Below are positions 7,564 to 47,159 of a stretch of 64,000 nt of DNA, piece after piece. The stretch's first letter is position 1, and every line of letters begins with the position of its first letter. The notes under the pieces are model-generated. The model searched no databases and had not been told where the DNA came from. It saw only the letters and a program-made list of their open reading frames with translations. The translations under genes and the position numbers were made by a program. Source of the stretch: Gammaproteobacteria bacterium (GTDB lineage: Bacteria > Pseudomonadota > Gammaproteobacteria > RBG-16-57-12); assembly GCA_021647245.1 (NCBI GenBank), contig JAKIVC010000002.1:64184-128183 (forward strand). Direction: 5' to 3'.

Positions 7564-7925
7564 TGCTGCGTCGAGGTGATTATCTGGTACTGTTGGCCAC
7601 ACTACTGCTGTTGCCATGGCTCTATTTGACGCTCTGGGGTGATCAGCGTGCGGGTGAGTATGCACAAATTCTTGTGGGTGGTGAGCAGATGGCGTTGGTG
7701 AGCCTTCACCAACCGCGAACCCTTGAAGTGGAAGGATCTCTGGGGTTGAGTCTGCTCGAAGTGCTGGACGGTAAAATTCGTTTTGTAGCATCGGCCTGCC
7801 AAAATAAACAGTGTGTTCATCGCCGCTGGATCAGCTTGGGCGGCGAGGTGGTGAGCTGCTTGCCCAACCGGGTGAGTATCGCCATATTAGGTGGTGAGCA
7901 GCGTTTTGATGCGATTAACTTTTAA
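7557..7925 (+). CDS. NusG domain II-containing (DUF1312) membrane-anchored protein.
   Basis: N-terminal TM, a conserved Cys pair (ACQNKQC), and 122 aa. Its position between ApbE and a Gx transporter is the typical conserved trio. Confidence 0.6.
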   Translation: MVVLRRGDYLVLLATLLLLPWLYLTLWGDQRAGEYAQILVGGEQMALVSLHQPRTLEVEGSLGLSLLEVLDGKIRFVASACQNKQCVHRRWISLGGEVVSCLPNRVSIAILGGEQRFDAINF

Positions 7926-7931
7926 TCACCC

Positions 7932-8489
7932 ATGAATCAACTTGGCCACCGCAAGATTTTGACACAACCCAGTGACCATCGCATCGCTTGGTGGGCCGCG
8001 CTGGCGATCACCATTCATATTGTTGAGAGTGCGCTGCCCAGCCCGGTCCCGGGTCTTAAGCTGGGTTTGGCAAATGTGATTGTGGTGGCGGTGCTGGTGC
8101 TCTATGGCTGGCGAGATGCGGTTTGGGTGGCACTGTTACGGGTGTTGGTGGGGAGCCTGCTGGTGGGTACTTTCCTTACACCTACCTTTATGCTCAGTTT
8201 AAGTGGCGCGTGTGCCAGCCTGCTGGCGCTTGGCGCGGGATATTACTACAGTCGCCTGCTACCCAGTTGGGGGCTTGGGGCGCTGGGCTACAGTCTGTTG
8301 GCTGCCCAAGCGCATATGCTTGGGCAGTTTGCTATCGCCTATTTTGTATTGATTCCACACCCCGCGCTCTTTAAATTATTACCGGTATTGATGACGGCTG
8401 CATTGGTATTTGGCGTGATCAGTGGCATGATTGCAGTGGCAATGATTGATAAGGTACAGAAGCGAGTCAATGGTGGAACAAGTAGTTAA
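7932..8489 (+). CDS. Gx transporter family protein (heptaprenyl diphosphate synthase component I-like membrane protein).
   Basis: 185 aa polytopic membrane protein with Gx motifs. It is the partner of the ApbE/NusG-II genes. Confidence 0.6.
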   Translation: MNQLGHRKILTQPSDHRIAWWAALAITIHIVESALPSPVPGLKLGLANVIVVAVLVLYGWRDAVWVALLRVLVGSLLVGTFLTPTFMLSLSGACASLLALGAGYYYSRLLPSWGLGALGYSLLAAQAHMLGQFAIAYFVLIPHPALFKLLPVLMTAALVFGVISGMIAVAMIDKVQKRVNGGTSS

Positions 8490-32319: not shown

Positions 32320-32374
32320 TTGTCAGCACACCAATGTTGATAGCGGATCGATTATTGCAAAAGAAACACCTCTT

Positions 32375-33598
32375 ATGACGGTATGGGGAAATATGATGAG
32401 CTTTTTTGCTAAAAAAATGAAGTGGGGTGTTTGTGTCATTAGCGGCGCTACCCTAATGGTTGCAGGCTCGGCAGCATCGGCATCTGGAATCACTGAAGCG
32501 ATTAAAGGGGGTGAGGTCAGCGGTGATTTTCGTCTGCGAATGGAGACGGTGACTCAAGATAACGCCCTAAATGATGCAAATGCACTCACATTGCGCAGTC
32601 GGCTGGGTTATCGAACAGCGGACTACAAGGGATTGACTGGTTTTATGGAGTTTGAAAATGTTACCGCGCTGAATGATGATTATGAGCCGATGCCCAGTAA
32701 CCCGGCCAAAACAGAGTCAGTGGTGGCTGATCCGGAAGGCACCGAGGTTAATCAGCTCTATTTGAAGTATGTTTCGGGTGGTCACGCGATTACCGCAGGT
32801 CGCCAGCGGGTTATTCTGGATAATGCCCGTTTTGTGGGCAACGTTGGGTGGCGCCAAAATGAGCAGACATTTAATGCCATTGTCTTTACGGTAGATTCCG
32901 TTGCGGATACCTCACTTGTTTATGCTTACGTGGACGGGGTTAATACAATCCTCGGGGGTGAGTACGATACTTCCGCGTATATCTTTAACGCATCATATAC
33001 TGGCTTTAGTGCCGGAAAAATAACCGGTTACTCCTATGTTATTGAGCAGGATGATGTGCCTTCGGCCTCAAATTCAATCCTGGGTTTACGGTTTTCCGGG
33101 GCGACAGATGTAGCAGAAGCCAAGGTAAAATATACGCTTGAGTATGCGAAGCAGTCGGATTATGCCGAGGGCACTAATATTGATGCCCAATACCTGTTGG
33201 CTGAATTAGGCGCAGAATTCAGTGGTGTGGGTATCAAGCTGGGCTACGAAGTGTTGGGGGATGGTAAGGGTGCAAATGACGCTTCATTCAGCACGCCCTT
33301 AGCCACGAAACACGCCTTTAATGGCTGGGCAGATGCCTTTTTAACCACGCCTACCGATGGCCTGCAGGATATTTATCTCTCCGTTACCACCCAAATTGAA
33401 GGGGTAAAGCTGTTAGCCGTCTACCACGACTACTCCGCAGATACCGGCAGTGCCGACCATGGCTCGGAGATCAACCTGCTTGCCGCTAAAAAGTTTGCAG
33501 GCCACTACACTGCGCTACTAAAGTATGCAGATTACTCTGCGGGTGATAGTGGTACGGATACCAGAAAGCTGTGGTTGATGGGGCAGATGAAATTTTAG
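32375..33598 (+). CDS. Outer-membrane beta-barrel porin-like protein of unknown specificity.
   Basis: Signal peptide, C-terminal ...MGQMKF terminal Phe, and beta-strand periodicity. 407 aa. Confidence 0.55.
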   Translation: MTVWGNMMSFFAKKMKWGVCVISGATLMVAGSAASASGITEAIKGGEVSGDFRLRMETVTQDNALNDANALTLRSRLGYRTADYKGLTGFMEFENVTALNDDYEPMPSNPAKTESVVADPEGTEVNQLYLKYVSGGHAITAGRQRVILDNARFVGNVGWRQNEQTFNAIVFTVDSVADTSLVYAYVDGVNTILGGEYDTSAYIFNASYTGFSAGKITGYSYVIEQDDVPSASNSILGLRFSGATDVAEAKVKYTLEYAKQSDYAEGTNIDAQYLLAELGAEFSGVGIKLGYEVLGDGKGANDASFSTPLATKHAFNGWADAFLTTPTDGLQDIYLSVTTQIEGVKLLAVYHDYSADTGSADHGSEINLLAAKKFAGHYTALLKYADYSAGDSGTDTRKLWLMGQMKF

Positions 33599-33752
33599 GA
33601 GGAGGTCGGACTTAGGGTGAATCTACTGCGGAAAAGCCATTCTGGCCCATTTCTCTGATCCTTTTCGTTGAATATGCCCAATATTCGCCTCAAACGACCA
33701 AAAAAATGGACTCAAAATGGCTTTCCCTCGCTACGATTACCTAAGCCCGACA
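33598..33752. repeat. Repeat family R2. It is a MITE-like element with ~45-bp terminal inverted repeats.
   Basis: The left arm ggaggaggtcggacttagggtgaatctactgcggaaaagccatt and the right arm aaaatggctttccctcgctacgattacctaagcccgacagcctcctagcc are inverse complements with mismatches. A partial copy lies at 20555. Confidence 0.55.
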
Positions 33753-33875
33753 GCCTCCTAGCCGAGTTTTACCACGGACAAAAAACAGCAAAAATTGTCG
33801 ACCCCTTCTCTTTTCTGATAAAAGCGCATTGCGAGGCCTATGGGGGCAAGGTAAGTTAATTATCTTGCTCCTGAG

Positions 33876-34967
33876 GTGAATGAGATGTTCCGATATTTAG
33901 TAGTGGCTGCGCTGTTTCCTATGTTGTCCGGCTGTGGTGGAGATACCCCGGCATCATCCAGTGAACCAGAGCGTGTTGAAAAAATAGTCGCTCGAGAGAG
34001 TAACCGTAGCTGCCTTGCTCCGGCGGATGCTATCGATACCGCGACCCGGCTCTCCACCACAGGCTGTTTTACAGATGTTAGCAACCAGATAATGGCGGGT
34101 GGGGTGATCCCCTACACCGTCAATAGCGTGTTGTGGTCCGATGGTGAGAGCAAAGGGCGTTATTTTGCAGTGCCGGATGGCACGACCATCAGCTTAACGG
34201 TGGACGAATCTTCAATTGTTGCCAGTAATGGCACTAAAAATGGTGATTTCAACTTTCCGGTAGGCGCGGTGGTGATCAAACACTTCTATAGTGGCAGCCG
34301 TATCGTTGAGACCCGCTTGCTGATGAACCATGCCAATGATGGTTGGGGTGGCTACGCCTATCAGTGGGATGAGTCACAGAGTGACGGTACCCTGCTGGTT
34401 GGCTCAAATAGCATCACCACACCGGTCAGCCACTATTTCCCGAGCCGCGAAGAGTGTATGGAGTGCCATACGGATGCCGCTCGGGTGTTATTAGGGCCGG
34501 ATACTCTACAACTCAATTACCCCCTTTACTATACGGATGGCACAGAAGAGAACTATCTCGATGCTTTGGTTCGATTAAATTACCTCTCGGCACCGTTGCT
34601 GGCGGATTATAAGGTGGATCGGCTCTATGCAATTGACGATAGCGACGCACCATTAGAGCAGCGAGCCAGAAGCTATTTGCACAGTAACTGCTCGGGCTGT
34701 CACCGCACTGGCGCACCGCAAGGTGGCTTTGATCTTCGTTACACCTCATCGTTTGTAAACAATGTTTGTGGTATCGCTGCAGCAGAGCCGACCAGCCCCA
34801 CCGGAGGGTTGCTGATCGACCCCGGCAATGCTGATAACGCCACTATTCAGCAGCGACTCGCCTCTATGGGGAGCATTCAAATGCCACCTATCGGGCGAGA
34901 GCAAACCGACCCCGAAGCGGTTCAAGTGATGGCTGATTGGATCAATAGCCTGCAGGGCTGTGATTAA
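33876..34967 (+). CDS. Dihaem c-type cytochrome lipoprotein with a Planctomycete-type cytochrome c (PSCyt1-like) C-terminal domain.
   Basis: Lipobox LSGC. Two CxxCH motifs (CMECH, CSGCH). CHRTGAPQGGFDLRY...SIQMPP fits the PSCyt1 pattern. Confidence 0.6.
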   Translation: MNEMFRYLVVAALFPMLSGCGGDTPASSSEPERVEKIVARESNRSCLAPADAIDTATRLSTTGCFTDVSNQIMAGGVIPYTVNSVLWSDGESKGRYFAVPDGTTISLTVDESSIVASNGTKNGDFNFPVGAVVIKHFYSGSRIVETRLLMNHANDGWGGYAYQWDESQSDGTLLVGSNSITTPVSHYFPSREECMECHTDAARVLLGPDTLQLNYPLYYTDGTEENYLDALVRLNYLSAPLLADYKVDRLYAIDDSDAPLEQRARSYLHSNCSGCHRTGAPQGGFDLRYTSSFVNNVCGIAAAEPTSPTGGLLIDPGNADNATIQQRLASMGSIQMPPIGREQTDPEAVQVMADWINSLQGCD

Positions 34968-37612
34968 CCCAGCAACTTTTTTAACTCCGGCACACATGAG
35001 CCACAATTTGTGCCGGCATTCAGATAGCTACCAATCTCTTCCACACTTTTCAAGCCATGTTTTTGGATCGCCTCTCGAATACTGTTTTCACCTACCTTGA
35101 AACAGGCGCAGACCACACGCCCGGTATCAACCTGGCCGACCGGTGGCTTTCCAGTGAGCAGTGCACGGCGCTCATCATTATCCAGCACCTCTTTTTCAAA
35201 AAGTGAGGCGAGCCAACTGCGGGGTGGCAGCGCTTTGTCCGGGGCGATGAAAATACAGCTCTCCACTTGATCTCCTGTCATACGAATACCTCGATAGGTG
35301 TTTGCGCCGTTATCCAGCAGTTCGACCCAGTTGACATCATTATTTGAGGTGCAAAGATAACTTCTCGCCCATGCGGGGAGATCTTTGGAGCGTTGCTCAC
35401 CCGCCACTTCGTATCGATAGTGGTTATTGCCGGTTGCCCTTGCCCAGTAACAGACCCCTTCCAGTTTTAATGCGCGGCGCGAAAGGATAAAGCCGTGCCA
35501 TGCGGTTTGGTAAGGCTTAAGCTGCACCGGCGTATGTTTAAACTCAGGTTGGCCCGAAAGCGGGTCTACCGCAGGATTGACCACTGCGGAGGCTTTTCCC
35601 CTGCTGGAAAACTGCTCGCTCCAGTGCATCGGCGCAAACAATTCACCACGGCGCTGGCCGTTGTCCAAGCGTACTCGCCCGATCATCTCACCCCAGCGGC
35701 TGGTCACCGTGGCTAACGCATCCTCATTGATAGAGAGCGCCACGGCATCATCAGGATGAATGGCGATGTAGGGTTCGGGGCTATGCTCAGATAGCCGTGG
35801 CGCCTTTCCAGTGCGGGTCATGGTGTGCCACTGGTCGCGTACCCGCCCAGTATTCAGAATAAAGGGAAAGCTGTCACAGGGCATGTGTGCGGGTAGCCGT
35901 GGCTCAATGGCTTGAAACTGTGCCTTGCCTGATGGCGTGAAAAAATGGCCATCACTAAACATGCGAGCACTCCCCGCAGGCTGCTGTTGATTCACTGGCC
36001 ACTGGATGGGTGATAGCTGGTGGTAACTCTGTTGAGTTTGACTGCTCAGTGCCGAAAGGTCGAAGTCACGCTCTCCGTTGTTTCTATATCCGGAAAGAGC
36101 CGCGTGTTCGTTAAATATTTCGTAAGGGTGTTGATAATTAAAACCATCGCTATACCCCATACGCTTGGCCACCTCAGAGATTATCCACCAATCGGGTTTT
36201 GCTTCACCGGCAGCCGCCTGAAAAGCTCTCTGGCGTGAGATACGTCGTTCAGAATTGGTAACGGTGCCGCTCTTCTCCCCCCAGCCTTGGGCCGGTAATA
36301 AAATATTGGCACGGAGGGTGGTGTCGGTCTGCTTAACGCAATCGGAGACCACTACAAACTCGCACTGTTTGATCGCTTCTGCAACGTGGTCTGCATTGGG
36401 CATGCTGGCTGCGGGGTTGGTGGCCATGATCCATACAGCCTTGATCTTTCCCTTGGCAATATCATCAAACATATCTACCGCCTTGCGGCCGCTTTGTTTA
36501 GGAATGGCGGGTGAGCCCCAGAAGCTTTGTACTAAAGTACGGTGCGCGGGGTTTTTTATCTCCATATGAGCGGCCAACATATTGGCCAACCCGCCTACTT
36601 CGCGCCCTCCCATGGCGTTTGGTTGGCCAGTAAAAGAGAAGGGGCCCATGCCGGGGCGACCGATACGCCCGGTGGCCAGATGGCAGTTGATAATGGCATT
36701 GACCTTATCCGAACCACTGGTTGATTGATTAATGCCCTGAGAGTAGACAGTGACCACCCGCTCTGTGCGGGAGAAGAGTCGATAAAACGCTTGAACCACA
36801 GACACTTCGAGGCCACAGCGTAGTGCCACGGAGTCGACGCTAGGCGCGGTTTTTTCTGCCATGCGGAGTGCGGTCTCAAACCCCTCGGTATAAGCATTCA
36901 AATAACTGTGGTTTATTTCACCATCCCGCTGCAGATAACTTAGCAAGCCATTAAACAGTACGGTATCGGTACCAGAACGCAGGGGCAGGTGGAGGTCGGC
37001 AATGTCACAGCTGGGGGTCTCTCTGGGGTCGATTACTACCACCATCAGATCGGGGTTGACCCGCTTTGCCTGGTTGATTCGCTGAAACAGTACCGGATGA
37101 CACCAGGCTGCATTGGTGCCGGCCAGTACAATCAGCTTTGCTCGTTCCAGATCTTCATAACAGCAGGGCACGGTGTCTGACCCAAAAGCGCGTTTATGGC
37201 CTGTGACAGAAGAGGACATGCAGAGCCGCGAGTTGGTATCAATATTGGCTGTGCCGATATAACCTTTGATCAGCTTATTGGCGACATAGTAATCTTCAGT
37301 CAAGAGTTGCCCCGACACATAAAAAGCGACCGCGTCAGGGCCGTGCTGCTCAACGGTTGCTAAAAACCTCTCCGCGACCTCCCCAAGCGCCTGATCCCAG
37401 CTGGCGGGTATTCCCTCAATTTCGGGCTGGAGCAGCCGCCCCTCCAGTCCCAAGGTTTCGCCCAACGCCGACCCTTTGGAGCAGAGCTTGCCAAAATTAG
37501 CGGGGTGCAGCGGGTCACCTTGGACTGTGTAGCCGCCATCAGCATTCGCTGCTACCAGCACTCCGCAGCCAACACCACAATAGGGGCAGGTTGTTTTTGT
37601 CATCTTGGACAT
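34964..37612 (-). CDS. nasA: Assimilatory nitrate reductase catalytic subunit with a C-terminal BFD-like [2Fe-2S] domain.
   Basis: N-terminal CPYCGVGCG 4Fe-4S motif, molybdopterin oxidoreductase domains, and a C-terminal CACFKV...CGSC. 882 aa. Confidence 0.9.
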   Translation of the reverse strand: MSKMTKTTCPYCGVGCGVLVAANADGGYTVQGDPLHPANFGKLCSKGSALGETLGLEGRLLQPEIEGIPASWDQALGEVAERFLATVEQHGPDAVAFYVSGQLLTEDYYVANKLIKGYIGTANIDTNSRLCMSSSVTGHKRAFGSDTVPCCYEDLERAKLIVLAGTNAAWCHPVLFQRINQAKRVNPDLMVVVIDPRETPSCDIADLHLPLRSGTDTVLFNGLLSYLQRDGEINHSYLNAYTEGFETALRMAEKTAPSVDSVALRCGLEVSVVQAFYRLFSRTERVVTVYSQGINQSTSGSDKVNAIINCHLATGRIGRPGMGPFSFTGQPNAMGGREVGGLANMLAAHMEIKNPAHRTLVQSFWGSPAIPKQSGRKAVDMFDDIAKGKIKAVWIMATNPAASMPNADHVAEAIKQCEFVVVSDCVKQTDTTLRANILLPAQGWGEKSGTVTNSERRISRQRAFQAAAGEAKPDWWIISEVAKRMGYSDGFNYQHPYEIFNEHAALSGYRNNGERDFDLSALSSQTQQSYHQLSPIQWPVNQQQPAGSARMFSDGHFFTPSGKAQFQAIEPRLPAHMPCDSFPFILNTGRVRDQWHTMTRTGKAPRLSEHSPEPYIAIHPDDAVALSINEDALATVTSRWGEMIGRVRLDNGQRRGELFAPMHWSEQFSSRGKASAVVNPAVDPLSGQPEFKHTPVQLKPYQTAWHGFILSRRALKLEGVCYWARATGNNHYRYEVAGEQRSKDLPAWARSYLCTSNNDVNWVELLDNGANTYRGIRMTGDQVESCIFIAPDKALPPRSWLASLFEKEVLDNDERRALLTGKPPVGQVDTGRVVCACFKVGENSIREAIQKHGLKSVEEIGSYLNAGTNCGSCVPELKKLLG

Positions 37613-37861
37613 TATTATTGCCTTTTACATACAGATAAACATTGTTGAGCAAATTTTGCGCCATATTCACATTGTGGTGGTCAAGGGGGTAAATGACGAC
37701 ACAGCGTATCTGGTTTGTGGCTTGGCCACTTTTTCCACACCCTTTTGGTGCGACATTGCCACCATATGCCTATATTAGGTGCGGCTAATACTCTGTTTTC
37801 AGGAGAAAATTAGCCCCTCAAAATAAAATAATATGCCCTTGAGGTAATTGATATAGGGGTT

Positions 37862-38015
37862 GCAGGCTATAGAAGAGTCTGCTTATACTGCGATAGTGCG
37901 CTTTTAACTGTGGTGAGTACTTGGCTCCTACCCTATCTTCATGTAGGAGTGTAAAGCACTGTGGAATCAATCTCTTGCACAGTATACGCACTTCTATTTG
38001 AGGGTTAGGGTTTTA
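37862..38015 (-). repeat. Copy of intergenic repeat family R1.
   Basis: The reverse complement ccctaaccctcaaatagaagtgcgtatactgtgcaagagattgattccacag matches the other copies. Confidence 0.6.
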
Positions 38016-38056
38016 GTCAAAAGCAAGTGAAGCAGTTTGCCGTATACCGTTGTAAC

Positions 38057-38079
38057 TTGATAACGATCTGATAATCGTT
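38057..38079 (+). promoter_or_regulatory. FNR/DNR-like half-palindrome TTGATaacgATCtg plus the palindrome AACGAT-N6-ATCGTT, upstream of the truncated haemoglobin.
   Basis: Seen ~100 bp upstream of the 38163 start. It is 8 of 10 to the TTGAT-N4-ATCAA consensus. Confidence 0.25.
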
Positions 38080-38162
38080 AATAAAGTGTTATTTTTTTAG
38101 TGTATTTATGTTTAACTGCACAAGGTAAGAGACAAAACTATTTTCTTTATAGGAGAGAACAC

Positions 38163-38519
38163 GTGAGTTCATTATTTGATCGTTTGGGTGGTAATGCGGC
38201 TGTAGATGCAGCGGTAGATATTTTTTACGCTAAGGTATTGGCAGATGATCGTATCAACCAGTTTTTTACAACGGTTGATATGGAGACACAAGCGGCCAAG
38301 CAAAAAGCCTTTTTAACCATGGCTTTTGGTGGTCCGAATAGCTATACCGGGCTGGATATGCGTGAAGGGCATAAACATATGAACCTGAACGAAGGTCATT
38401 TTACTGCGGTGGTTGAAAATCTGGCCGCTACACTGAAAGAACTGGGTGTTTCTGATGCCGATATTGCCGAAGTTGCTGAAGTTGCCAATAGCGTAAAGGA
38501 TGATGTGCTAAACCGTTAA
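38163..38519 (+). CDS. glbN: Group I truncated haemoglobin (trHbN / cyanoglobin-like), with a GTG start.
   Basis: LFDRLGGNAAVDAAVDIFYAKVLADDRINQFF...AFGGPNSYTGLDMREGHKHM is highly similar to GlbN/HbN. An aggagag RBS precedes the GTG. The ORF-track N-terminal extension is unlikely. Confidence 0.85.
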   Translation: MSSLFDRLGGNAAVDAAVDIFYAKVLADDRINQFFTTVDMETQAAKQKAFLTMAFGGPNSYTGLDMREGHKHMNLNEGHFTAVVENLAATLKELGVSDADIAEVAEVANSVKDDVLNR

Positions 38520-38540
38520 GAACAGCTGCTACGGATAATA

Positions 38541-38575
38541 GCGCCTCAACACATGCTGTGTTGAGGCGTTTTTTA
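38541..38575 (+). terminator. Rho-independent terminator after the truncated haemoglobin gene.
   Basis: gcctcaacaca-tgc-tgtgttgaggc stem followed by TTTTTT. Confidence 0.8.
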
Positions 38576-38682
38576 TTGCAAAATATTACTCGTTTCTATA
38601 TTTATTAAAATGGGTTTGATTGAGGCCTCTTTACGAGATCTCTTTAAGATAAAAATACCTTTTACTGCCAAGGTGGGCGTAA

Positions 38683-39231
38683 GTGTCAAAATTACTCAAA
38701 ATATTTGAGAAGCTCGCGGGCGAGCGGCGGGGCCGAGTGCGTCACGTTGAGATTCTGATCGCAACGGTGGCGGCGTTAACTGCACTTTTGATGGTGGGGT
38801 GGATTAGTCGCTCGGTTGCGGGTGATCAGGCTGGCCTCTATTTAATGGCCTCAATGGGCGCATCAGCGGTATTGATTTTTGCTGTGCCTGCTACTCAAAT
38901 GGCAAGGCCGTGGGCCTTCTGTTGCGGGCACTTTGTCTCTGCCTTTGTGGGTGTGAGTTGTAGTTTGTTGATAGGGGATCTGGTTTTAGCGGCGGCACTC
39001 GCGGTCTCGATCTCTATCTTTTTGATGAGCTACCTGCGTTGCCTGCATCCGCCGGGTGGCGCTGCGGCAATGATTCCTATTGTTAGTGGCGAGTCAGTTA
39101 CTGCAATGGGCTACAGTTTTCTACTTATCCCTGTTGGCATTAATGTATTGGTGATGCTGCTGTTTTCACTGGCTTACTTTCGCTGGATGGCACAGCGGGA
39201 GAAGCGGTTTATGGCGCAGCGATCCAAGTAG
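38683..39231 (+). CDS. HPP family membrane protein (putative nitrite/anion transporter family).
   Basis: Four TM segments and the signature HPPGGAAA. 182 aa. Confidence 0.7.
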   Translation: MSKLLKIFEKLAGERRGRVRHVEILIATVAALTALLMVGWISRSVAGDQAGLYLMASMGASAVLIFAVPATQMARPWAFCCGHFVSAFVGVSCSLLIGDLVLAAALAVSISIFLMSYLRCLHPPGGAAAMIPIVSGESVTAMGYSFLLIPVGINVLVMLLFSLAYFRWMAQREKRFMAQRSK

Positions 39232-39241
39232 CGGCTCTTAG

Positions 39242-40189
39242 CTACTCCGCCAGTTGCAGTATAAACATCTCGACTACAAGCAAGGTACTTAAGAAGGTGG
39301 AAAATAGACTGATGTAGAGTGTTTTGTATTGGTTGTCATACTCTTTTTCGAGGGTATTGCTGAGTTGTTTCATGAGTGAGTTGAGCTGCTTGAAGCTAAG
39401 GCCGATGGCATCACTGGCAATAGCAAAATAGTGATCAGGTTTGATCATAATTTTTTTTGCGCTCAGGAATTCCCTGTCTAGAGTGCTCAAAAACAGCGCA
39501 ATACTTTTCTGGCATTGGGTGAAATCCAACATGTTTTTATCGATTTTTTGATGCCTTAAAATGGTAATTGTCTCATCACATACCAGTGAGGCCTTTTGAT
39601 GAAGATAGCCCAACTTACTCCGGCTTTGTGTATTTAGACGGGCTTGAGTTGCGGCTCCAGTGCCAATTCCCCTTGCCTGACCCAGCACTTCGGTAACAAA
39701 GGGGAGTATGTTGATACCGATCTCCAGCAGTCCATGCAGCTGCTTGTCATCACTGTTGTCCAGCTTGCTCAGGCTGCCGGTATCACTAATTAGATTAAGT
39801 AGTTTTGAGATAATGGCGGTGTGCAGGGAGAAGCTCTCCTCAGCACTGAGTGATGAGAAGTTTTCAGTTACTTTATGCCAGCCCTTCTTAACCTCAAGAT
39901 AACCGGGTGAGCTTGAAAATTCAGGGTAATCGTTACTTATTTTCTGTAGCTGCCGGCCTATTTTTTTTTGGTGCGCATAGCACTTCTCCTTGAAAGCTGA
40001 GTTGCCTTTCAGTAGCGCATTGCTCATGCCGCGATGCTGGGGAATGCTCTCTAGTAACTGGAAAAGCTGGCGGATAACCAATAATCCTGCCTGCCGCCGA
40101 GCTGAAAAACGCCGTTGAACCACCACAGAGCGTAACCACGCCACTGAGATAAAAAATAAAATGAGAGAGACCAGAGTAAGCGTCAGCAT
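39242..40189 (-). CDS. Stand-alone TM-NIT-TM protein: a nitrate/nitrite-sensing (NIT) domain flanked by two transmembrane helices.
   Basis: N-terminal TM, two NIT-type repeats with Q-x-RG motifs ([12 protein letters not shown]; [13 protein letters not shown]), and a C-terminal TM. It starts at an ATG that overlaps the upstream MCP stop (ATGCTGA). Confidence 0.6.
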
Positions 40190-41340
40190 GGTGACTTCTC
40201 TTGTGAACGGGATAACTTGACCAGATAGCCGGCTGTTTCGGATGCCTCTTGGATCACTTCGGTGGTCTGTTGAGCCATCTGATTTATTTTTTCGATATTG
40301 ATGGAGATTTCGCTACTGCTGCTATTCTGCTGGTGAATTGCCAGGCTGATATTTTCCATTGCCGCAACGGTGGATTTCGCCCCTTGTTTAATTGACTGAA
40401 GGGCGTTGTGGGTCGAATCAGAGAGCCCAACACTGTTATTGATGGCGTTGATGATCTGCTCCATACCGTTGCTGACATTCTGCACATCTTGTTGAATAGC
40501 GGATATTTGTTGATTAACTTTGGAGGCCGCCTGCTGGGAGCGTTGCGCCAACTGCCTTACTTCATCAGAAACCACAGAGAAGCCACGGCCATGTTCACCT
40601 GCACGAGCTGCTTCGATGGCTGCATTCAGTGCCAGCAGGTTAGTCTGGTTTGCTATATCATTGATGGTGTCGATGATTGAGCTGATCTCTTGCGAGCGTG
40701 ATAGCAGGCCGTTGATCTGTTCGGTTGATTGATTAATTGAATGAGAGGCCGTCTGGATTTCGGTCGCCATGGTTTTAACAATGTCATCACCTTCAGTCGC
40801 ATAGGTGTCCAACATTTTTGAGGTGCTGTCGGCTTCGTCAGCAAGCCCCGAGATGGTATCGATATTACCGCTTAACTGCTCCATCTCATTTAAAATGCTA
40901 GCCACCGAAGTCTGTTGAATGGTCATCATTTCAGTCGAGTGCCCATTCATTTTTGCTAAATCAAGTGCCGCACTGTGTAGCTCTTCGCTGGCGCTTTTAC
41001 TCTTTTCGTCCAAGCGTTCAACCGCAACCCGCTGCTGATGAAATGCGCTGAATATGGGGTTAAACTCATTCTCTTTATAGCAAGCGGTCTCCCCCTTTGT
41101 CAGGCGGCGTATAGTGTGTAGCTGATAGTGGTGATAAGCAAAAATCAGGTAGAGGGTGATGCTCAGCGTTATGATGACAAGGAGTGTCAGGTCAAATTGC
41201 AGTGCGGGTTCAAGCGTCGGGATAAGATAGAGCAGCGCAGAGGCTAAGGGCAGTACGGTAAGTGATACGATAAAAATCAGTTTTTGGCGTAGTGAGAGTC
41301 GTTCAAAAAGAGCGGTGACGGGTTTGAATAATTGATCCAT
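40183..41340 (-). CDS. Methyl-accepting chemotaxis protein lacking a periplasmic ligand-binding domain (two TMs, a ~10-aa loop, then the signalling domain).
   Basis: TM1 and TM2 are separated by [13 protein letters not shown] signalling domain [34 protein letters not shown]. Confidence 0.8.
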
Positions 41341-41452
41341 TCTGCTATTCCTCGTTTTCCTCGTCTATCAGGTAGCCCAGAATAACATTATGATGCGGGT
41401 TTCGAGTTACTCCGTACTACTACCTATAAGGGGTTTGGAACAAGTGAGGGTA

Positions 41453-41602
41453 ATTCCCCTAATCCCTAGGTAGCAACACGTATGCAGGCCCTTGATTCCA
41501 CAGCAAAGCAAAAAATCGTCACCGAACCTACGGGTGCTACTCCTATTTTTTATTTCACTGTGAAACCGATATCTTACATATCATTACGTATTTTTATCTG
41601 GA
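41453..41602 (+). repeat. Full-length copy of intergenic repeat family R1 (~150 bp).
   Basis: cccctaatccctaggtagcaacacgtatgcaggcccttgattccacagcaaagcaaaaaatcgtcaccgaacctacgggtgctactcctattttttatttcactgtgaaaccgatatcttacat...atctggag is ~85% identical to the reverse complement of 50554-50706. Confidence 0.65.
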
Positions 41603-41751
41603 GTTTATGCTGAGCCTAAACCTACCCAAACTTGTTTAAAATCTCCTTAACGGATAGCGTTCTATGCTTGCAGATCTTTAACATTTTTTTCATGAATGGT
41701 CTTGGGCTGGCCGGCTGGTTTTTGGTGGTTGGCCCCCAAAAATCACTCTGG

Positions 41752-43164
41752 CTACCCCTCTACAAGTTCGCGGGCATACTCTTTTAATGTATCCAGTATG
41801 GCTTTTTCGCTGTCACCGTATTCAGGGGTGGCGCGCAGTTCATTTAGCTCAGCCAGATAGCTGGCTAGATCAAGGCGACTCAGGCGGAATGTTTGCCAGC
41901 GTGCCTGCTCCTCTTCGGTCAAGGTGTCGAGGTAGTTGCGAGCACGCATGCGAAACAGCATTTCGGGCAGGCGGCTATCATCAAAAGGTGGCTCATAGCC
42001 TACCAGCTCTTGCGGGGTCATGGTATGGATCTGTGCCATGCGGGACTTATCGTCCGGGCTAAAAAAACCGCCCCCATAGAGCATCTGGTCGGGGTCGGTT
42101 CGTTTTTCGAACTGGCTCTCCGAGAGCACCTGCTGCACTTTCTTGGCGAGTCCTTTTGCCTCTTGCAGAACGGCCAGGTTTTGGCGGCAGAGGTTAAGGT
42201 CGATGCCATACTTTTTGGCCGCCTTGCCATCGAGGGACATAAATGGGGCAATCACCGGGCATTTGTTTATATGTACCGTTTTTAGTGGGATGCGCTCAAC
42301 CCCCTCGGGTAACTCATCACTGCGAGTAAAGAGGCGCTGGTGGATCTTCTTCGCACTGAGGTTGATTAAATCAGCCGGGTCAACGCTTAGATCGTACACC
42401 ACCACGCCATTTTTGTTGGTGGGGTGCTCGGCAATCGGCACCACTATGGCCATATTTCCTTTCTCTACCGGGTACATGCCCGAAACATGAATTACCGGCT
42501 TCTGCTCACGTAAATCAAGCAGCTTGCTCAATTTGCGCTTGTTACGGTTGTTGTATACGTATTCGAACAGCTTGGGCTGTTTCTCTTTAATGAGCTTGGC
42601 CATGGCGATGGTGGCGTAGACATCAGAGAGCGCATCGTGAGCCGATTCATGTGCGATACCATTTGCTGCGGTAAGGTCTTCTAGTCGGACCGAGGGCCGG
42701 CCCTCTTCGGTGGTGGGCCACTCAATGCCTTCAGGGCGCAATGCGCGGGTCATGCGTACCACATCTAAAAGGTCCCAGCGGCTACAGCCATTTTGCCACT
42801 CCCGTGCGTAGGGGTCCATTAGGTTGCGGTAGAGCGTATAACGGGTAAACTCATCATCAAAGCGCAGGTTGTTATAACCCAGCACGCAGGTATTAGGCTC
42901 GCTAAACTGCTCATTGATCAGGCGGATAAACTCAACCTCAGGCAACCCGGCTTCAAGTGCCATGGGTGGTGTGATACCAGTGATTAAGCAGGAGCTGGGG
43001 CTGGGGAAAAAATCATTGGCAGGCTTACAATAGATCATTAATGGATCGCCAATAATATTGAGATCCTCATCGGTACGCACCCCGCCAAATTGTGCAAGGC
43101 GGTCATTCATTGGGCTGAGGCCAAAGGATTCGTAGTCGTACCAATAGAATGTTTTTTTGCTCAT
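41752..43164 (-). CDS. sbcB: Exodeoxyribonuclease I. The start was set at the internal MSKKTF; the ORF-track N-terminal extension would overlap the upstream gene.
   Basis: FYWYDYESFGLSP...DEDLNIIGDPLMIYCKPANDFFPSP is the Exo I N-terminal DEDD exonuclease domain. Confidence 0.9.
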   Translation of the reverse strand: MSKKTFYWYDYESFGLSPMNDRLAQFGGVRTDEDLNIIGDPLMIYCKPANDFFPSPSSCLITGITPPMALEAGLPEVEFIRLINEQFSEPNTCVLGYNNLRFDDEFTRYTLYRNLMDPYAREWQNGCSRWDLLDVVRMTRALRPEGIEWPTTEEGRPSVRLEDLTAANGIAHESAHDALSDVYATIAMAKLIKEKQPKLFEYVYNNRNKRKLSKLLDLREQKPVIHVSGMYPVEKGNMAIVVPIAEHPTNKNGVVVYDLSVDPADLINLSAKKIHQRLFTRSDELPEGVERIPLKTVHINKCPVIAPFMSLDGKAAKKYGIDLNLCRQNLAVLQEAKGLAKKVQQVLSESQFEKRTDPDQMLYGGGFFSPDDKSRMAQIHTMTPQELVGYEPPFDDSRLPEMLFRMRARNYLDTLTEEEQARWQTFRLSRLDLASYLAELNELRATPEYGDSEKAILDTLKEYARELVEG

Positions 43165-43204
43165 GATCGTCTGCTCTTTAGAATAATTATAACGTGCTGC
43201 AAGG

Positions 43205-43684
43205 TTATCTAGACTCTCTGTTTCTGAAGCCAAGGCGCTGGCTGCTGGGGTCGGCTGGGCGGATCGCGACTTCACAGCTAATCTGACAGCAATGGGTGCC
43301 ATCTGTTCGATAAAAGCCGTAACCAAAGTGTGGGGTATGACTGCCCTTTTCGGCCAGTGCGGCTGCTATCTGTTGCCGTAGCGGTTCGGGAAAATCGAAT
43401 TGTAAAACTAGATCCTCACTGCCTGGGCGTAAAAAATCCAGCTGCAAACGCTTTGTCCACACCGTGTAATCTGGGAAGCCGTTGGCACAAGCCAGTGCCG
43501 CAATCGGATCCGCCAGGGAGGCCATGGCACCGCCAAACAGGGTGCCACCGGGATTAAGGTTTTGTGGCTCCCGCGGCAGCAAAATACGTACCCGCTGCCA
43601 CTGTTCGCTCAGTTCCAACACTTTTATATTCATCGATTTAAACGGTGGATAGCTTTCCAGGCGTTGTGCGGCGTGTTGTGACAC
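43205..43684 (-). CDS. Hotdog-fold thioesterase-like protein (PaaI/YiiD-C-terminal-like).
   Basis: GGTLFGGAMASLADPIAALAC hotdog motif. 159 aa. Specificity is unknown. Confidence 0.55.
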   Translation of the reverse strand: MSQHAAQRLESYPPFKSMNIKVLELSEQWQRVRILLPREPQNLNPGGTLFGGAMASLADPIAALACANGFPDYTVWTKRLQLDFLRPGSEDLVLQFDFPEPLRQQIAAALAEKGSHTPHFGYGFYRTDGTHCCQISCEVAIRPADPSSQRLGFRNRESR

Positions 43685-43750
43685 GATGAGTTCCCGATGA
43701 CTGATGGATCAGGTTATGATAGCAGCTCCTGATAAGTCATGTAATCTACG

Positions 43751-44512
43751 ATGTCTCACACTACTGTTGCTATTATCGCTACTCATCCAGCACGTCAGCC
43801 AGAGGCGGATATGCTTGCCCATCATTTGGCGCTGCCTTGTGGCGAGTCGCCACAATTTAATTTGGAGTTTACGGGTGACCGGTTGCAGCTGTGCCTTAAT
43901 GCGGTGGCGGCTCCCGGCCCCATCTATGTCGACTTTGTGGGGGGTAAAGCGGCTCATCGCCGCCACTTTGGTGGTGGACGTAACCAGCCCATGGTGAGGG
44001 CTGTGGGGTTAAAGCCGGGTATAAACCCACACATTTTCGATGCGACGGCGGGGCTGGGGCGGGATAGCTTTGTCTTCGCCAGTCTGGGTTGCCAAGTGAC
44101 GATGGTAGAGCAAAATCCGCTCATCGCCGCACTGCTTGAAGATGGTTTACAGCGAGGTCAGGGCACCCTGCCCGAAATCTGCCAGCGGATGACGCTGGTT
44201 AATATGGATAGCGTAGAGTACCTACAGCACTGCAGTGAAACCCCTGATGTGATCTATCTTGACCCGATGTACCCGCATCGGGATAAATCGGCTTTGGTAA
44301 AAAAAGAGATGCGCCTGTTTCAGCTGCTGCTCGGGGAGCCAGTAGATAGTCGTGATCTAATGGTGGCAGCGCTAAATTGTGCCAGAAAACGCGTGGTGGT
44401 AAAGCGCCCCAAGGGGGCCGAACGGATATCAAAGCATTTACCGACCATGAGCATTAACAGTAAAAATACCCGCTATGATGTTTATGTTATTGCGGCAATG
44501 CACACAAAATAG
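43751..44512 (+). CDS. rsmJ: 16S rRNA (guanine1516-N2)-methyltransferase RsmJ.
   Basis: FVGGKAAHRRHFGGGRNQPMVRAVG...DATAGLGRDSFVFASLGCQVTMVEQNP...YLDPMYPHRDKSALVKKEMRLFQ is a close match to YhiQ/RsmJ. Confidence 0.9.
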   Translation: MSHTTVAIIATHPARQPEADMLAHHLALPCGESPQFNLEFTGDRLQLCLNAVAAPGPIYVDFVGGKAAHRRHFGGGRNQPMVRAVGLKPGINPHIFDATAGLGRDSFVFASLGCQVTMVEQNPLIAALLEDGLQRGQGTLPEICQRMTLVNMDSVEYLQHCSETPDVIYLDPMYPHRDKSALVKKEMRLFQLLLGEPVDSRDLMVAALNCARKRVVVKRPKGAERISKHLPTMSINSKNTRYDVYVIAAMHTK

Positions 44513-44687
44513 TGAGCGCATTCGCATAGTGCTGGACATTCGTTAAAACCCAGTGCTATGCTGAGGTTTGGCCGTTGGTGAGTTAACGGTCAACTGTATG
44601 TCCTCATTATATGCGCTGGATGCTTTTGGTGTACGGTGAAATTTAGAGTTCAAAATTAGCGTAATCAACGAAGAGAAGGATAATCCC

Positions 44688-45167
44688 ATGAAAAAGACAA
44701 TTCTGGCGGGCGTAATGGCCTTGGCAATGGCTCCAATGGCATCTCAAGCTGAAACAGGTGCAGGTTGTGGTCTGGGTTCAATGTTATTGGAAGGTCAGCA
44801 GGGGCTGGTTTTTAATGTACTGGCAGCAACTGTCAACGGTACATCGGGCAATCAAACCTTCGGTATGACTTCTGGCACCTTGGGTTGTGATGGCGAAGGT
44901 ACGGTCACTTTCGCAGCGGCGGGTGAATATCTGGATGCCAATATGGAGCAGGTTGCTCGCGGTATGGCAACGGGTGAAGGTGAAGCGATGGATACGTTGG
45001 CAAGTCTGATGGGTGTTTCAGCAGCAGATAAAGCTGCTTTTGTTCAAGTTTCTAAAGCTAATTTCTCAGTTATTTTTAGCAAAGAGAATGTAACCAGTGC
45101 TGATGTGATGTCATCACTGACTCAAGCTATGGCAGCTGATCAGTCGCTATCAAAGTATATCTCTTAA
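44688..45167 (+). CDS. DUF3015 family secreted protein.
   Basis: Signal peptide, AGCGLGS and GTLGCDGEG motifs. 159 aa. Confidence 0.6.
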   Translation: MKKTILAGVMALAMAPMASQAETGAGCGLGSMLLEGQQGLVFNVLAATVNGTSGNQTFGMTSGTLGCDGEGTVTFAAAGEYLDANMEQVARGMATGEGEAMDTLASLMGVSAADKAAFVQVSKANFSVIFSKENVTSADVMSSLTQAMAADQSLSKYIS

Positions 45168-45260
45168 TTGAGAGCTTGCTTTGAGTGGTCGCCTTTCGGC
45201 GGCCGCTCTTCCCCTCGTTTTTTCTTTATTCCAACACCCCCTATCCAAAAAGTGTCCAAT

Positions 45261-47159
45261 GTGACAAGACTCCTGTTTACCTTGTTAATAGCGCTGTTTT
45301 CTCTCAATAGCAATGCCACAGAAAATAGCTACCTGAACCAATTAATTGCAGCGAGCCACGAGCAGCAATTGGCGCAGAATGCTGGCTGGTGGTCACTACT
45401 CCACTACCGAAAAGAAGTGCTGGGAGGCTATCCGCTAAGTGAGGCTGATGATGAGCGTTTTTTCTTCTCTGCGGAGGGTAGCCGCGATGCCGAACTTGAG
45501 TTGGCAGCGACGCTAAGTGCCTTTTTTACGCCACTGATAGGCGATTTGAGTGAACACCCTCAGTGCCGCTTTCCGGCACGTTATTATTGGCTGTCACAAC
45601 AGCTGGATATCGCTACAGAGCGGTTGCCACAGCCCCCTTGTGATGAGTTTAACCAGTGGATGGAGACCATTAATCCTGGCAGTGCCACACTGGTCTTTCC
45701 GGCCGCCTACCTCAATAGCCCCTCCTCGATGTTCGGTCATACATTGCTACGGATTGACCCCGCTGATAAGCGCAGTGAGACGCCGCTGATCTCTTATGCC
45801 CTCAATTATGCGGCCGCAATCACTGGAGAGGAAAATGGGTTTGTTTTTGCTTATAAAGGCATCTTTGGTGGCTACCCCGGTAGCTTTGCGCTGGTGCCCT
45901 ATTATGAAAAGATAAAAGAGTACAGCGATATGGAGAATCGCAATATTTGGGAGTACCAGCTTAATTTAAGTGGTGATGAGGTACGCCAGCTGATGCGCCA
46001 TACATGGGAAGTAAGTAAGATTCGCTTTGACTACTATTTTTTCGATGAAAACTGCTCCTATCGTCTGCTTACATTGCTGGATGTCGCTCGCCCGGGACTT
46101 GGTTTGGCTGAGCCGTTCTCCGCCACGGCGATCCCCGCAGATACGGTACGTGCGGTTGAGCAAAAAAATCTATTCAGTGGTATTAATTACCGCCCCTCAA
46201 CGACTACCACGCTCAACCATCGCTTGAATCTGTTGGATGAGTCGCAGCAGCGGCAACTGCTCATGTTAATTACCGATGACACGGCACACCAACAGAGTGA
46301 ATTTTTATCTTTAAATGAATCATTGCGGGCCAAGCTTTTGGAGTTAGCTTATGATCTGCAACTTTATCGCATCCGCGCAAGCGGCTTACAGCGTGATCCA
46401 CGGGCATCTCATGCTTATCAGCTGTTATCACAACGCAGCAAGCTGGCATCATCAGCAGAGTGGCCGGAAGTGCCGATTCCCGGGGTACGCGCAGAGCAGG
46501 GGCACCTCAGCTCGCGCATCGCACTCTCTCTGGGTAGCCGTGAAAAGCAGTTGTTTACAGCACTGCGCTACCGCCCCGCTTATCACGATATTCTTGACCC
46601 GGCACAGGGCTATGGTGTGGGCATGCAGATCAACTTTTCCGATCTTAATCTACGTTACTATCCAGAAGAGCAGCGCGTAGAAATTGAAGAGTGGAAAATC
46701 ATCAATATACTGTCGCTCTCACCCCGCAATGATTTTTTTCAGCCTATCTCCTGGGGTATCGATTTGGGTTTTCAGCGGCAGCGGTTTAATGGGCAGAGCG
46801 TTTTACCACTACAGGTGACGGGAGAGGCGGGTGTCAGTTACCGGCTGGGCAAGCAGTGGCTTGCCAGCACCCTGGCTCAACTACAGTTTGCTGCGCACCA
46901 CGATTTTGACGAAAAAATTAAAGCGGGAGTGGGGCCGAACTTGAAACTGCTCTATCATTCAAATCAGGTGCACAGCCTGCTTTTAGTACAAATGATGCAC
47001 TTCCCTCAAGGGGATGAATATCAAACATGGCAGCTGAACTGGCAGTTAAACCTCCCCTTGCCAAGCGAGCAACAGGGGCTACGTTTCAGTGCTAAACGTG
47101 AGTGGCAGGAGGGTAATGCCTTTAATGAGTTTGAGATTGCCTGGCAGTGGTATTTTTAA
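45261..47159 (+). CDS. DUF4105 domain-containing (Lnb-like) exported protein. The probable GTG start is at 45261; the upstream in-frame extension is not coding.
   Basis: Signal peptide MTRLLFTLLIALFSLNSNA. SSMFGHTLLRIDP...YYFFDENCSYRLL is the DUF4105 core. Confidence 0.55.
   Translation: MTRLLFTLLIALFSLNSNATENSYLNQLIAASHEQQLAQNAGWWSLLHYRKEVLGGYPLSEADDERFFFSAEGSRDAELELAATLSAFFTPLIGDLSEHPQCRFPARYYWLSQQLDIATERLPQPPCDEFNQWMETINPGSATLVFPAAYLNSPSSMFGHTLLRIDPADKRSETPLISYALNYAAAITGEENGFVFAYKGIFGGYPGSFALVPYYEKIKEYSDMENRNIWEYQLNLSGDEVRQLMRHTWEVSKIRFDYYFFDENCSYRLLTLLDVARPGLGLAEPFSATAIPADTVRAVEQKNLFSGINYRPSTTTTLNHRLNLLDESQQRQLLMLITDDTAHQQSEFLSLNESLRAKLLELAYDLQLYRIRASGLQRDPRASHAYQLLSQRSKLASSAEWPEVPIPGVRAEQGHLSSRIALSLGSREKQLFTALRYRPAYHDILDPAQGYGVGMQINFSDLNLRYYPEEQRVEIEEWKIINILSLSPRNDFFQPISWGIDLGFQRQRFNGQSVLPLQVTGEAGVSYRLGKQWLASTLAQLQFAAHHDFDEKIKAGVGPNLKLLYHSNQVHSLLLVQMMHFPQGDEYQTWQLNWQLNLPLPSEQQGLRFSAKREWQEGNAFNEFEIAWQWYF

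Follow-up and report, generated by a model that had tools for sequence, protein, structure and literature searches.

How can a chemoreceptor work when its signaling half and its sensing half are encoded by separate genes? The question is raised by two overlapping genes in a 64-kb stretch of a metagenome-assembled gammaproteobacterial genome (hereafter, the window), in which an initial annotation had singled out the region 39242–41340. The first gene encodes a methyl-accepting chemotaxis protein (MCP) without a ligand-binding domain, and the second a stand-alone protein in which a NIT domain lies between two transmembrane segments (TMs). Both open reading frames (ORFs) lie exactly where that annotation had placed them, with the lengths it gave (Table 1), and the ATGCTGA overlap of start and stop codons that it described is present in the sequence: The junction reads ...tcaccATGCTGAcg, with the ATG of the NIT gene (40189–40187) and the TGA of the MCP gene (40185–40183) set in different frames of a 7-nt overlap. 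The overlap suggests translational coupling. We propose that the two genes probably encode one bipartite chemoreceptor, in which a hairpin MCP is paired with a membrane-anchored NIT sensor that faces the cytoplasm.

The window MCP contains MCPsignal (PF00015, E = 3.7e-42, residues 190–355) and no other Pfam domain. Its AlphaFold2 (AF2) model, built from 16 homologs (mean pLDDT 79), comprises helices 6–14, 17–39, 45–82, and 94–381. Because helices 17–39 and 45–82 are joined by a five-residue turn (40–44), this part is a TM hairpin without a periplasmic domain, which bears out the earlier description of the protein as sensor-less; the hydropathy windows of the two TMs lie 9 residues apart. A low-confidence or disordered connector (84–91) sits between the helix that ends at 82 and the helix that begins at 94. 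In this HAMP-like region the family of partner MCPs from related loci shares the consensus GDxxxxxxxxxxDExxxL, with E92 and R109 invariant, and Pfam HAMP is matched in 4 of 20 partner MCPs (best E = 1e-5). The signaling tip, from Q232 to F254, is invariant across the partner MCPs except at position 250. In NCBIfam alignments, the window MCP shows no length difference from Pseudomonas aeruginosa CtpM and, over the same region, is 28 residues longer than Escherichia coli MCP IV; from this we infer a probable 40-heptad class.

The 16 best MCP homologs are all 385–414 residues long, and none carries a NIT domain. A canonical NIT-MCP has its NIT domain between TM1 and TM2 of the same chain; here, the domain is found on a separate downstream ORF. 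Two partner MCPs (L010:3627–4979 and L020:3594–4964) have an inter-TM loop of ~50 residues instead of 5–25, which may be the remnant of a lost periplasmic domain.

The identity of the 315-residue downstream protein as a NIT protein is settled by the domain matches of its family, by a profile match to NIT-MCPs, and by its fold. Among its homologs, 21 of 23 match Pfam NIT (PF08376) at E ≤ 0.01 (best 8.9e-9), and precomputed Pfam annotation lists the domain for 17 of the 23. Family members are ~290–330 residues long, and their profile aligns end to end with the TM1-NIT-TM2 portion of ~675-residue NIT-MCPs (E ~1e-57 to 1e-78). A search with this profile covered 1.8 billion representative sequences: 86 of the 170 best NIT matches are stand-alone proteins of the window type, corresponding to at least 86 clusters at 50% identity. 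An NCBIfam search of the 315-residue protein gave no match. The AF2 model is all-helical (pLDDT 91.2, pTM 0.84), and Foldseek returns NasR as its only significant PDB match (4akk_A; E = 4.8e-5, probability 1.00, TM-score 0.63), with no other match below 0.08.

Conservation within the family is concentrated in two helices. Q51-H52-R53-G54, R173, and G176 are invariant in 23 NIT-family sequences, and the rest of the GQARGIG motif (G170, Q171, A172, and G174) is kept in at least 90% of them; helix 1 around QHRG and helix 5 around GQARG are the best conserved segments (majority fractions 0.66 and 0.62).

A survey of other genomes, as the initial annotation had proposed, finds the pair from both sides. 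A locus scan restricted to one genome per species returned 53 loci, which were classified by a script using hidden Markov models (HMMs): ~32 hold a stand-alone NIT gene, 31 of these with upstream DNA. A same-strand MCP gene lies directly upstream of the NIT gene in 31/31; in 28 of them this gene is short or truncated at a contig end, and in 3 it encodes a full NIT-MCP. The other scanned loci hold canonical single-chain NIT receptors—~675-residue NIT-MCPs, longer PAS-NIT-MCPs, and NIT domains with other outputs. Approached from the MCP side, a NIT gene follows three of three distant homologs (34–36% identity), two with a 4-nt overlap. Down to ~25–35% identity, Gamma- and Betaproteobacteria keep the two genes separate, with the MCP gene first and a short overlap or gap before the NIT gene, and the pair recurs in >30 independent genomes or assemblies from different studies. 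Carriers are mostly uncultured and include the gammaproteobacterial Chromatiales, Woeseiaceae, Ca. Tenderia, and Ectothiorhodospiraceae and the betaproteobacterial Gallionella, Sulfuricella, and Sterolibacterium.

The junctions vary in detail. In the scanned split loci, 13 overlap, by ATGA in nine, by ATGCTGA in three, and by 1 nt in one; the other junctions examined are gaps of 2–56 nt, most with a purine-rich, Shine–Dalgarno-like stretch before the NIT gene. The 7-nt overlap of the window is also found in L005 and L006, the 1-nt overlap in L008, and the 4-nt ATGA overlap in L001, L007, L009, L011–L013, L017, L018, L024, and L060, as well as, by coordinates, in L061, where the NIT gene is an unannotated downstream ORF, cut by the contig end and without a Pfam record. 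Two loci hold broken copies: At L011:4908–5876 the stand-alone NIT gene occupies two ORFs, and at L026:3656–4899 the partner MCP is divided between an N-terminal ORF and a 239-residue ORF, through either sequencing errors or decay. In L001:5227–7662 and L058:6346–8778 (plus strand), the gene directly after the NIT gene encodes an MshE-like ATPase (MshEN + T2SSE).

We asked what such a sensor might read. Nitrate and/or nitrite are the ligands that we tentatively favor, by analogy with the cytoplasmic NIT domain of NasR and because Arg53 and Arg173 are invariant. The NIT domain of NasR responds to nitrate and nitrite (PMC7496416, PMC8199190), and its helix-5 residues E175/R176 are predicted to form part of the nitrate pocket (PMC7496416). 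The genomic context bears on the same question. The neighbors reported for the window—nasA, a truncated hemoglobin (trHb), and an HPP-family protein—are indeed present, and the link to the latter two recurs: trHb and/or HPP genes adjoin 10 of 29 split loci vs. 0 of 24 fused loci (Fisher p = 0.001). Outside the window, loci with such a neighbor are L001, L005, L006, L010, L011, L020, L026, L027, L040, and L058. Across about five lineages the HPP gene is convergent with the pair (window), divergent from it (L001, L010, and L058), or co-directional with it (L040). A Fer2/FAD/NAD reductase gene follows the globin gene in L001, L010, and L058; L010 also encodes NnrS, a membrane protein of nitric oxide (NO) stress, downstream of the pair (6903–8102, minus strand); and nasA adjoins the pair in L005 as well. 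Group-1 trHbs (trHbN), HbN among them, turn NO into nitrate. For cyanobacteria, Maeda 2014 (as cited in PMC7438415) describes an HPP protein that carries nitrite.

The same two-protein architecture could instead serve a different ligand, such as another anion, a metabolite, or an NO-derived species. We regard this as unlikely, though it carries real weight: The NIT domain of P. aeruginosa PA4520 failed to bind nitrate or nitrite, NIT chemoreceptors of Pseudomonas putida and Pseudomonas fluorescens mediated no nitrate taxis (PMC6381276), two thirds of the split loci have no nitrogen-related neighbor, and the first motif of the stand-alone family is QHRG in place of the ERG more common in NIT domains. 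Against it stand the response of NasR to both anions, the two invariant arginines, and a linkage to HPP, trHbN with its reductase, NnrS, and NasA that is enriched at split loci and resistant to rearrangement.

The initial annotation had taken the NIT domain for a periplasmic sensor, and the charge pattern speaks against this. Under the positive-inside rule, positively charged flanks lie on the cytoplasmic side of the membrane. Counting K+R in the 15 residues before and after each TM, we obtained 0.06/4.01 around TM1 of stand-alone proteins (n = 83; more after than before in 82 of 83) vs. 2.92/1.90 in fused receptors (n = 77), in which D+E after TM1 is 2.78 (Mann–Whitney p = 5e-27). The counts for the window protein are 0/5, and it has no hidden basic N terminus, because 40189 is the first possible start. 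In fused receptors the NIT domain is periplasmic, because the signaling domain that follows TM2 is cytoplasmic; applied to the TM1 bias of the stand-alone proteins, the positive-inside rule places their N terminus outside and their domain inside. Together with the TM1 flank, the informative signatures are tail length, cysteine content, and net charge. The mean number of residues before TM1 is 3.3 in stand-alone and 24.6 in fused proteins, and the tails of the stand-alone proteins beyond their TMs are uncharged and 0–8 residues long; betaproteobacterial members have acidic residues in the short stretch before TM1. Gram-negative bacteria are known to disfavor cysteine in their exported domains. 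Stand-alone NIT domains contain 2.95 cysteines each (94% with at least one, n = 107) vs. 0.13 in fused ones (12% with at least one, n = 101; p = 1.5e-33), and their net charge is +1.4 vs. −7.9. Lineage effects on the cysteine contrast are removed by three genomes that hold both types side by side, with 3–4 cysteines in the stand-alone and none in the fused domain. On these signatures, stand-alone NIT proteins very likely insert N-out, with the NIT domain in the cytoplasm—the opposite of the periplasmic NIT of canonical receptors. This apparent inversion of sensor-module topology would be the most unusual element of the system.

Two single-chain receptors offer a precedent for a cytoplasmic NIT domain beside an MCP. 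P0024 (950 residues) and P0049 (918 residues) have the order TM1-NIT-TM2-HAMP-MCPsignal-NIT; their second NIT domain is 54–59% identical to the first of the same protein and is cytoplasmic, because no TM stands in front of it.

These data make it improbable that the stand-alone protein, as a TM1-NIT-TM2 sensor in the periplasm, detects external nitrate/nitrite and signals by packing its TMs against those of the MCP, as in sensory rhodopsin II/HtrII, which is how the locus had first been read. Such a sensor would fit the end-to-end alignment, both TMs included, of the family profile with the canonical periplasmic module, and the two TM helices in each protein could form a bundle. The TM1 charge bias is nevertheless opposite to the canonical one in 82 of 83 proteins, the outer tails are minimal, and the protein lacks the positively charged n-region of a signal anchor; stand-alone domains are rich in cysteine where canonical ones are almost free of it, even in the same genome. 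The TMs are, moreover, the least conserved segments of the NIT protein (majority fractions 0.38 for TM1 and 0.27 for TM2), and TM2 is absent from the whole betaproteobacterial Gallionella/Sulfuricella clade, so that they look like anchors, not like a signaling interface.

Both proteins can be traced to canonical NIT receptors. These share an N terminus with the consensus MKKLFAPAIALMNRLKYPQKF... followed by TM1, and we built an N-terminal HMM from the first ~43 residues of 71 fused NIT receptors only. It matches residues 1–40 of the window MCP (E = 2.1e-8) and 13 further partner-MCP loci at E < 1e-2; over 2478 ORFs, nothing unrelated, not even another MCP of the same loci, scored below 0.1. 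By this match, the window MCP retains the N-terminal module of NIT receptors without their NIT domain. Judged from this module, the sensor-less MCP is a descendant of a NIT-MCP that lost its periplasmic NIT domain. Intermediates exist in three genomes, in which a full NIT-MCP is followed after 23–25 nt by a stand-alone NIT gene (Table 1); in one of them, L021, the next genes are an extra AmoC/PmoC copy and then a PAS-SpoIIE phosphatase, and another, L025, belongs to the cultured Methylocaldum sp. GT1BB. In a neighbor-joining tree of signaling domains, a single split unites 26/26 partner MCPs and, besides them, contains only the intermediate NIT-MCPs of Methylocaldum and Methyloversatilis. In the corresponding NIT-domain tree, computed with capped distances and bootstrap, 89/90 stand-alone NIT domains form a pure split (bootstrap mean F1 0.98). 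The likely history is that a NIT-MCP gained a downstream paralogous NIT protein and then lost its own periplasmic NIT domain; because the trees are crude neighbor-joining distance trees, we infer the order of these events. P0024 and P0049 were considered as ancestors of the pair and ruled out: They are full NIT-MCPs with a duplicated C-terminal NIT domain, belong to other MCP lineages, and serve as precedent only. A Rosetta-stone search for a hairpin MCP fused to a NIT domain found none among the 16 best MCP homologs; P0024 and P0049 are the only MCP-NIT fusions that turned up.

The intermediates also lend some plausibility to an accessory role, in which the NIT protein would be a ligand-dependent inhibitor, a clustering or localization factor, or a second input to an MCP whose hairpin/HAMP senses by other means, or would mainly regulate HPP or NasA. 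In Methylocaldum and Methyloversatilis, the stand-alone NIT protein accompanies an MCP that still has a periplasmic NIT domain; the NIT-MCP-NIT proteins carry two NIT domains, and the cytoplasmic one would therefore have begun as an additional input; and HPP is genetically linked in several lineages. We nonetheless give this account little credence, since the window-type MCP has no other recognizable input domain, the NIT gene always follows the MCP gene while HPP/trHb genes occur in only about one third of loci, and conservation in the NIT protein peaks in the predicted ligand-pocket helices. That a frameshift or misassembly has cut one canonical NIT-MCP in two, or that the locus is a pair of decaying pseudogenes, has next to no probability, even for a metagenome-assembled genome and with broken copies elsewhere: The domain order is the reverse of the canonical one, both ORFs are intact and kept as two genes in >30 assemblies with several junction types, each family forms its own clade, and conservation of the arrangement from both sides excludes an artifact and shows selection for two genes, so that the split receptor is genuine, as first proposed.

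The bipartite receptor that we favor would work as follows. The transducer would consist of an N-in TM hairpin, a degenerate HAMP, and a signaling hairpin; the sensor would be a paralogous NIT module in inverted orientation, its terminal helices serving as membrane anchors from which only tiny tails point outward. Both proteins could be made together by way of the overlapping stop and start codons. The NIT domain of the inverted module would sit against the cytoplasmic side of the membrane, at the height of the HAMP and membrane-proximal region of the MCP. The cytoplasmic domain of an MCP is an antiparallel hairpin whose C terminus returns to the membrane-proximal end; by this geometric reasoning, the C-terminal NIT domain of P0024/P0049 and a tethered NIT domain would occupy the same place beside HAMP. 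There the domain would bind a cytoplasmic ligand, for which nitrate and/or nitrite are the likeliest candidates, and could thereby read an intracellular nitrate/nitrite pool set by uptake through the HPP putative nitrite transporter, by NO detoxification to nitrate through trHbN and its reductase, and by assimilation through NasA. Its ligand state would be passed laterally to the HAMP-like region of the MCP, much as from PAS in Aer or from CetB to CetA, and would alter kinase control and hence motility. Physical interaction, contact site, ligand, and behavioral output are all predicted features of the pair.

A joint reading, more tentative still, combines topology, descent, and ligand. A TM1-NIT-TM2 module would have been duplicated and flipped by charge redistribution, giving rise to inward NIT sensors that always work with a dedicated MCP and form a widespread family, so far unannotated, of at least 86 clusters at 50% identity. 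Most of these MCPs would then have dropped their outward NIT domain, and the receptor would now read a cytoplasmic nitrate/nitrite pool set by HPP uptake, NO dioxygenation by trHbN, and NasA consumption.

Several results weigh against the reading of the pair as an inward-facing NIT receptor, besides those already given for PA4520 and for the split loci without nitrogen-related neighbors. The window NIT protein itself scores below the PF08376 gathering threshold of 24.9 (18.5 bits, E = 0.0027, residues 111–201), which, read literally, leaves the refuting condition of the initial annotation (lack of a significant NIT match) borderline; the NIT assignment stands through homologs, profile, and NasR fold and not through this direct match. 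The family profile matched no PDB sequence at E ≤ 1, and NasR was found by structure comparison only. Pfam HAMP is not detected in the window MCP. K+R before/after TM2 is 3.19/0.15 in stand-alone proteins (median tail 2.5 residues) vs. 3.14/1.45 in fused receptors; the count before TM2 is thus high in both and does not discriminate, and the TM2 flank is uninformative, as the final NIT helix is basic in either class. Neither cheA nor cheW is seen in the window, and no che genes lie near the pair.

The only two-protein chemoreceptors that we found in the searchable literature are aerotaxis pairs with PAS/flavin adenine dinucleotide (FAD) sensors of the CetAB type, and the pair described here would extend the two-protein principle to a different sensor class and signal. 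For many bacteria, nitrate taxis has been explained by unspecific energy taxis (PMC6381276); a NIT sensor inside the cell, coupled to an MCP, offers a concrete candidate for it. If the joint reading above is right, the pair would be a direct molecular sensor for "metabolism-dependent" nitrate/nitrite/NO taxis, so far put down to generic energy taxis, and the Methylocaldum-type and NIT-MCP-NIT receptors would compare outside with inside. Present-day genomes preserve a series—canonical NIT-MCP, NIT-MCP with an inward NIT protein, hairpin MCP with an inward NIT protein—in which receptor input moves from outside to inside, apparently by inversion of sensor-module topology. The findings also bear on annotation: The ~300-residue NIT proteins are mostly unnamed or "hypothetical," and their partners would be scored as MCPs without a ligand-binding domain. 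Most carriers are uncultured sulfur-, iron-, and methane-oxidizing Gamma- and Betaproteobacteria from sediments and vents, where gradients of nitrate, nitrite, and NO matter.

Table 1. Coordinates of the gene pair, its domains, and its neighbors in the window, with the intermediate loci of other genomes (aa, amino acids)
Feature	Coordinates	Strand	Description and basis
MCP transducer ORF	40183–41340	−	385 aa, from the ORF list; without ligand-binding domain
MCP aa 1–41, cytoplasmic N-terminal motif and TM1	41218–41340	−	N-terminal HMM of fused NIT receptors
MCP aa 42–69, periplasmic turn of ~5–10 residues, then TM2	41134–41217	−	Sequence, hydropathy, AF2 helix 45–82
MCP aa 70–117, degenerate HAMP-like helix-connector-helix	40990–41133	−	Family alignment, AF2
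MCP signaling domain aa 190–355 with invariant tip	40276–40773	−	Pfam, alignment columns
ATGCTGA overlap of NIT start with MCP stop	40183–40189	−	Sequence
Stand-alone TM-NIT-TM sensor ORF	39242–40189	−	315 aa; family, AF2, Foldseek match to NasR
NIT protein TM1 aa 2–19, predicted N-out anchor	40133–40186	−	Only Met precedes; K+R counts
NIT protein basic stretch aa 20–34 after TM1, predicted cytoplasmic face	40088–40132	−	Charge counts
NIT domain aa ~35–290, cysteines C70, C204, C226	39320–40087	−	Conserved columns, fold match
NIT protein TM2 aa 293–312 and 3-residue tail, predicted second anchor with C terminus outside	39254–39313	−	K+R counts
HPP-family membrane protein, putative nitrite transporter	38683–39231	+	Pfam TM_HPP 2.5e-43; tail-to-tail with NIT gene, 10-nt gap
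Group-1 truncated hemoglobin (trHbN)	38100–38519	+	Pfam Bac_globin 4.1e-19
NasA, assimilatory-type nitrate reductase	34964–37612	−	882 aa, C-terminal BFD-like 2Fe-2S domain; Pfam Molybdopterin, Molydop_binding, Molybdop_Fe4S4, Fer2_BFD
Intermediates, NIT-MCP (674–726 aa) and stand-alone NIT (324 aa)	L021:2860–5882, L025:2858–5882 (Methylocaldum), L030:2702–5882 (Methyloversatilis)		

Around the pair, the trHb matches a group-1 trHb in PDB at E = 3.6e-35 and Mycobacterium tuberculosis HbN at 1.4e-20; its true start probably lies ~20 codons inside the annotated ORF. A strong terminator-like hairpin (14-bp stem and T-run, 38540–38570, plus strand) stands directly 3′ of the trHb gene, which probably makes trHb a transcription unit separate from HPP. 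The nasA gene overlaps tail-to-tail, by 4 nt, with a 363-residue ORF (33876–34967, plus strand) that has weak cytochrome-c matches only, and neither nirBD nor a nitrate transporter was seen adjoining it. Upstream of the MCP gene we found no convincing sigma-70 promoter and, by eye, no convincing sigma-28, sigma-54, or NsrR-like site; an Rfam search of 30000–46000 gave no match. The 410-nt region upstream of the MCP gene contains a 23-codon ORF (41622–41693, minus strand; MKKMLKICKHRTLSVKEILNKFG), which lies inside the best conserved block shared with L005 (there, by eye, MKKSLKLCKFGSLSVREPLIKSG) and has no counterpart in L006. It may encode a leader peptide or some other small protein, or it may mark a regulatory site. 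A protein search did not return the exact window MCP sequence (best match 95% identity), and the exact NIT protein is P0001 in NCBI; the MCP may stand in the source record under another start or as a pseudogene.

Elsewhere in the window, the only other chemosensory gene seen encodes a 677-residue PilJ-type MCP (835–2868, minus strand), probably a Pil-Chp twitching-motility receptor, next to a 175-residue ORF (2925–3452, minus strand). The window also encodes a bacterial dynamin-like protein of 649 residues (18595–20544, plus strand; Pfam Dynamin_N 1.1e-14) and a 554-residue ORF without a Pfam match (22999–24663).

Among known systems, the closest analog of the window pair appears to be CetA/CetB, or Aer as its single-chain equivalent, and not sensory rhodopsin/Htr. 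In Campylobacter jejuni, CetA (TM hairpin-HAMP-signaling) and the separate sensor CetB are co-transcribed, transducer before sensor, across a 17-bp gap, and form a complex (PMC2628428); a second pair, CetA2/CetB2, has been characterized in Magnetospirillum (PMC12442639). The window pair resembles them in a transducer made of TM hairpin, HAMP (a HAMP-like region in the window MCP), and signaling domain without a periplasmic domain; in a separate sensor gene adjoining the transducer gene, a pairing conserved here at 31/31 loci when traced from NIT genes and 3/3 when traced from MCP genes; and in the predicted location of its sensor at the cytoplasmic membrane face, from which the Cet sensor is thought to act on HAMP (PMC2628428, PMC12442639). 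It differs in that its sensor is an all-helical NIT domain of ~260 residues, whereas that of Cet is an FAD-binding PAS domain; that this sensor is integral, with one or two TM anchors, whereas the Cet sensor is peripheral; that its presumed signal is an anion pool and not redox state; and that its transducer derives from a NIT-MCP and not from an Aer-like protein. Because the sensor is NIT and not PAS/FAD, the pair is an analog only and not a member of the Cet family. Sensory rhodopsin II/HtrII likewise encodes a separate sensor together with a hairpin-type transducer, but its sensor is a nonhomologous 7-TM photoreceptor that signals from TM to TM, whereas in the window system conservation of the TMs is low and a whole clade does without one of them.

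The canonical NIT-MCP (TM1-NIT-TM2-HAMP-MCPsignal, ~675 residues; e.g., PA4520) shares with the window MCP the N-terminal motif, TM1, and a related signaling domain, and with the window sensor a NIT module bearing QHRG and GQARG motifs; in contrast, the window system is made of two chains in reverse order, has a loop of 5–10 residues where the NIT domain would be, and uses a stand-alone NIT protein with inverted charge bias, many cysteines, a basic net charge, and a clade of its own. NasR, a NIT-ANTAR antiterminator (PDB 4AKK) and the only significant structural match, has a cytoplasmic NIT domain with the Arg-bearing helices 1 and 5 conserved, yet it is a soluble, one-component RNA-binding regulator, whereas the window NIT protein has no output domain, is membrane-anchored and paired with an MCP, and is 16–17% identical to it. 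P. aeruginosa McpN is, like the proposed receptor, a chemoreceptor devoted to a nitrogen oxyanion (PMC6381276), but it is a single polypeptide whose periplasmic PilJ-type four-helix bundle binds external nitrate directly. We found neither stand-alone NIT proteins nor NIT-based split receptors described in the searchable literature, which is mostly open-access, so an earlier mention is possible. What is new in the window pair is the combination of a NIT sensor with a bipartite hairpin transducer, each a known element, for which we found no earlier description.

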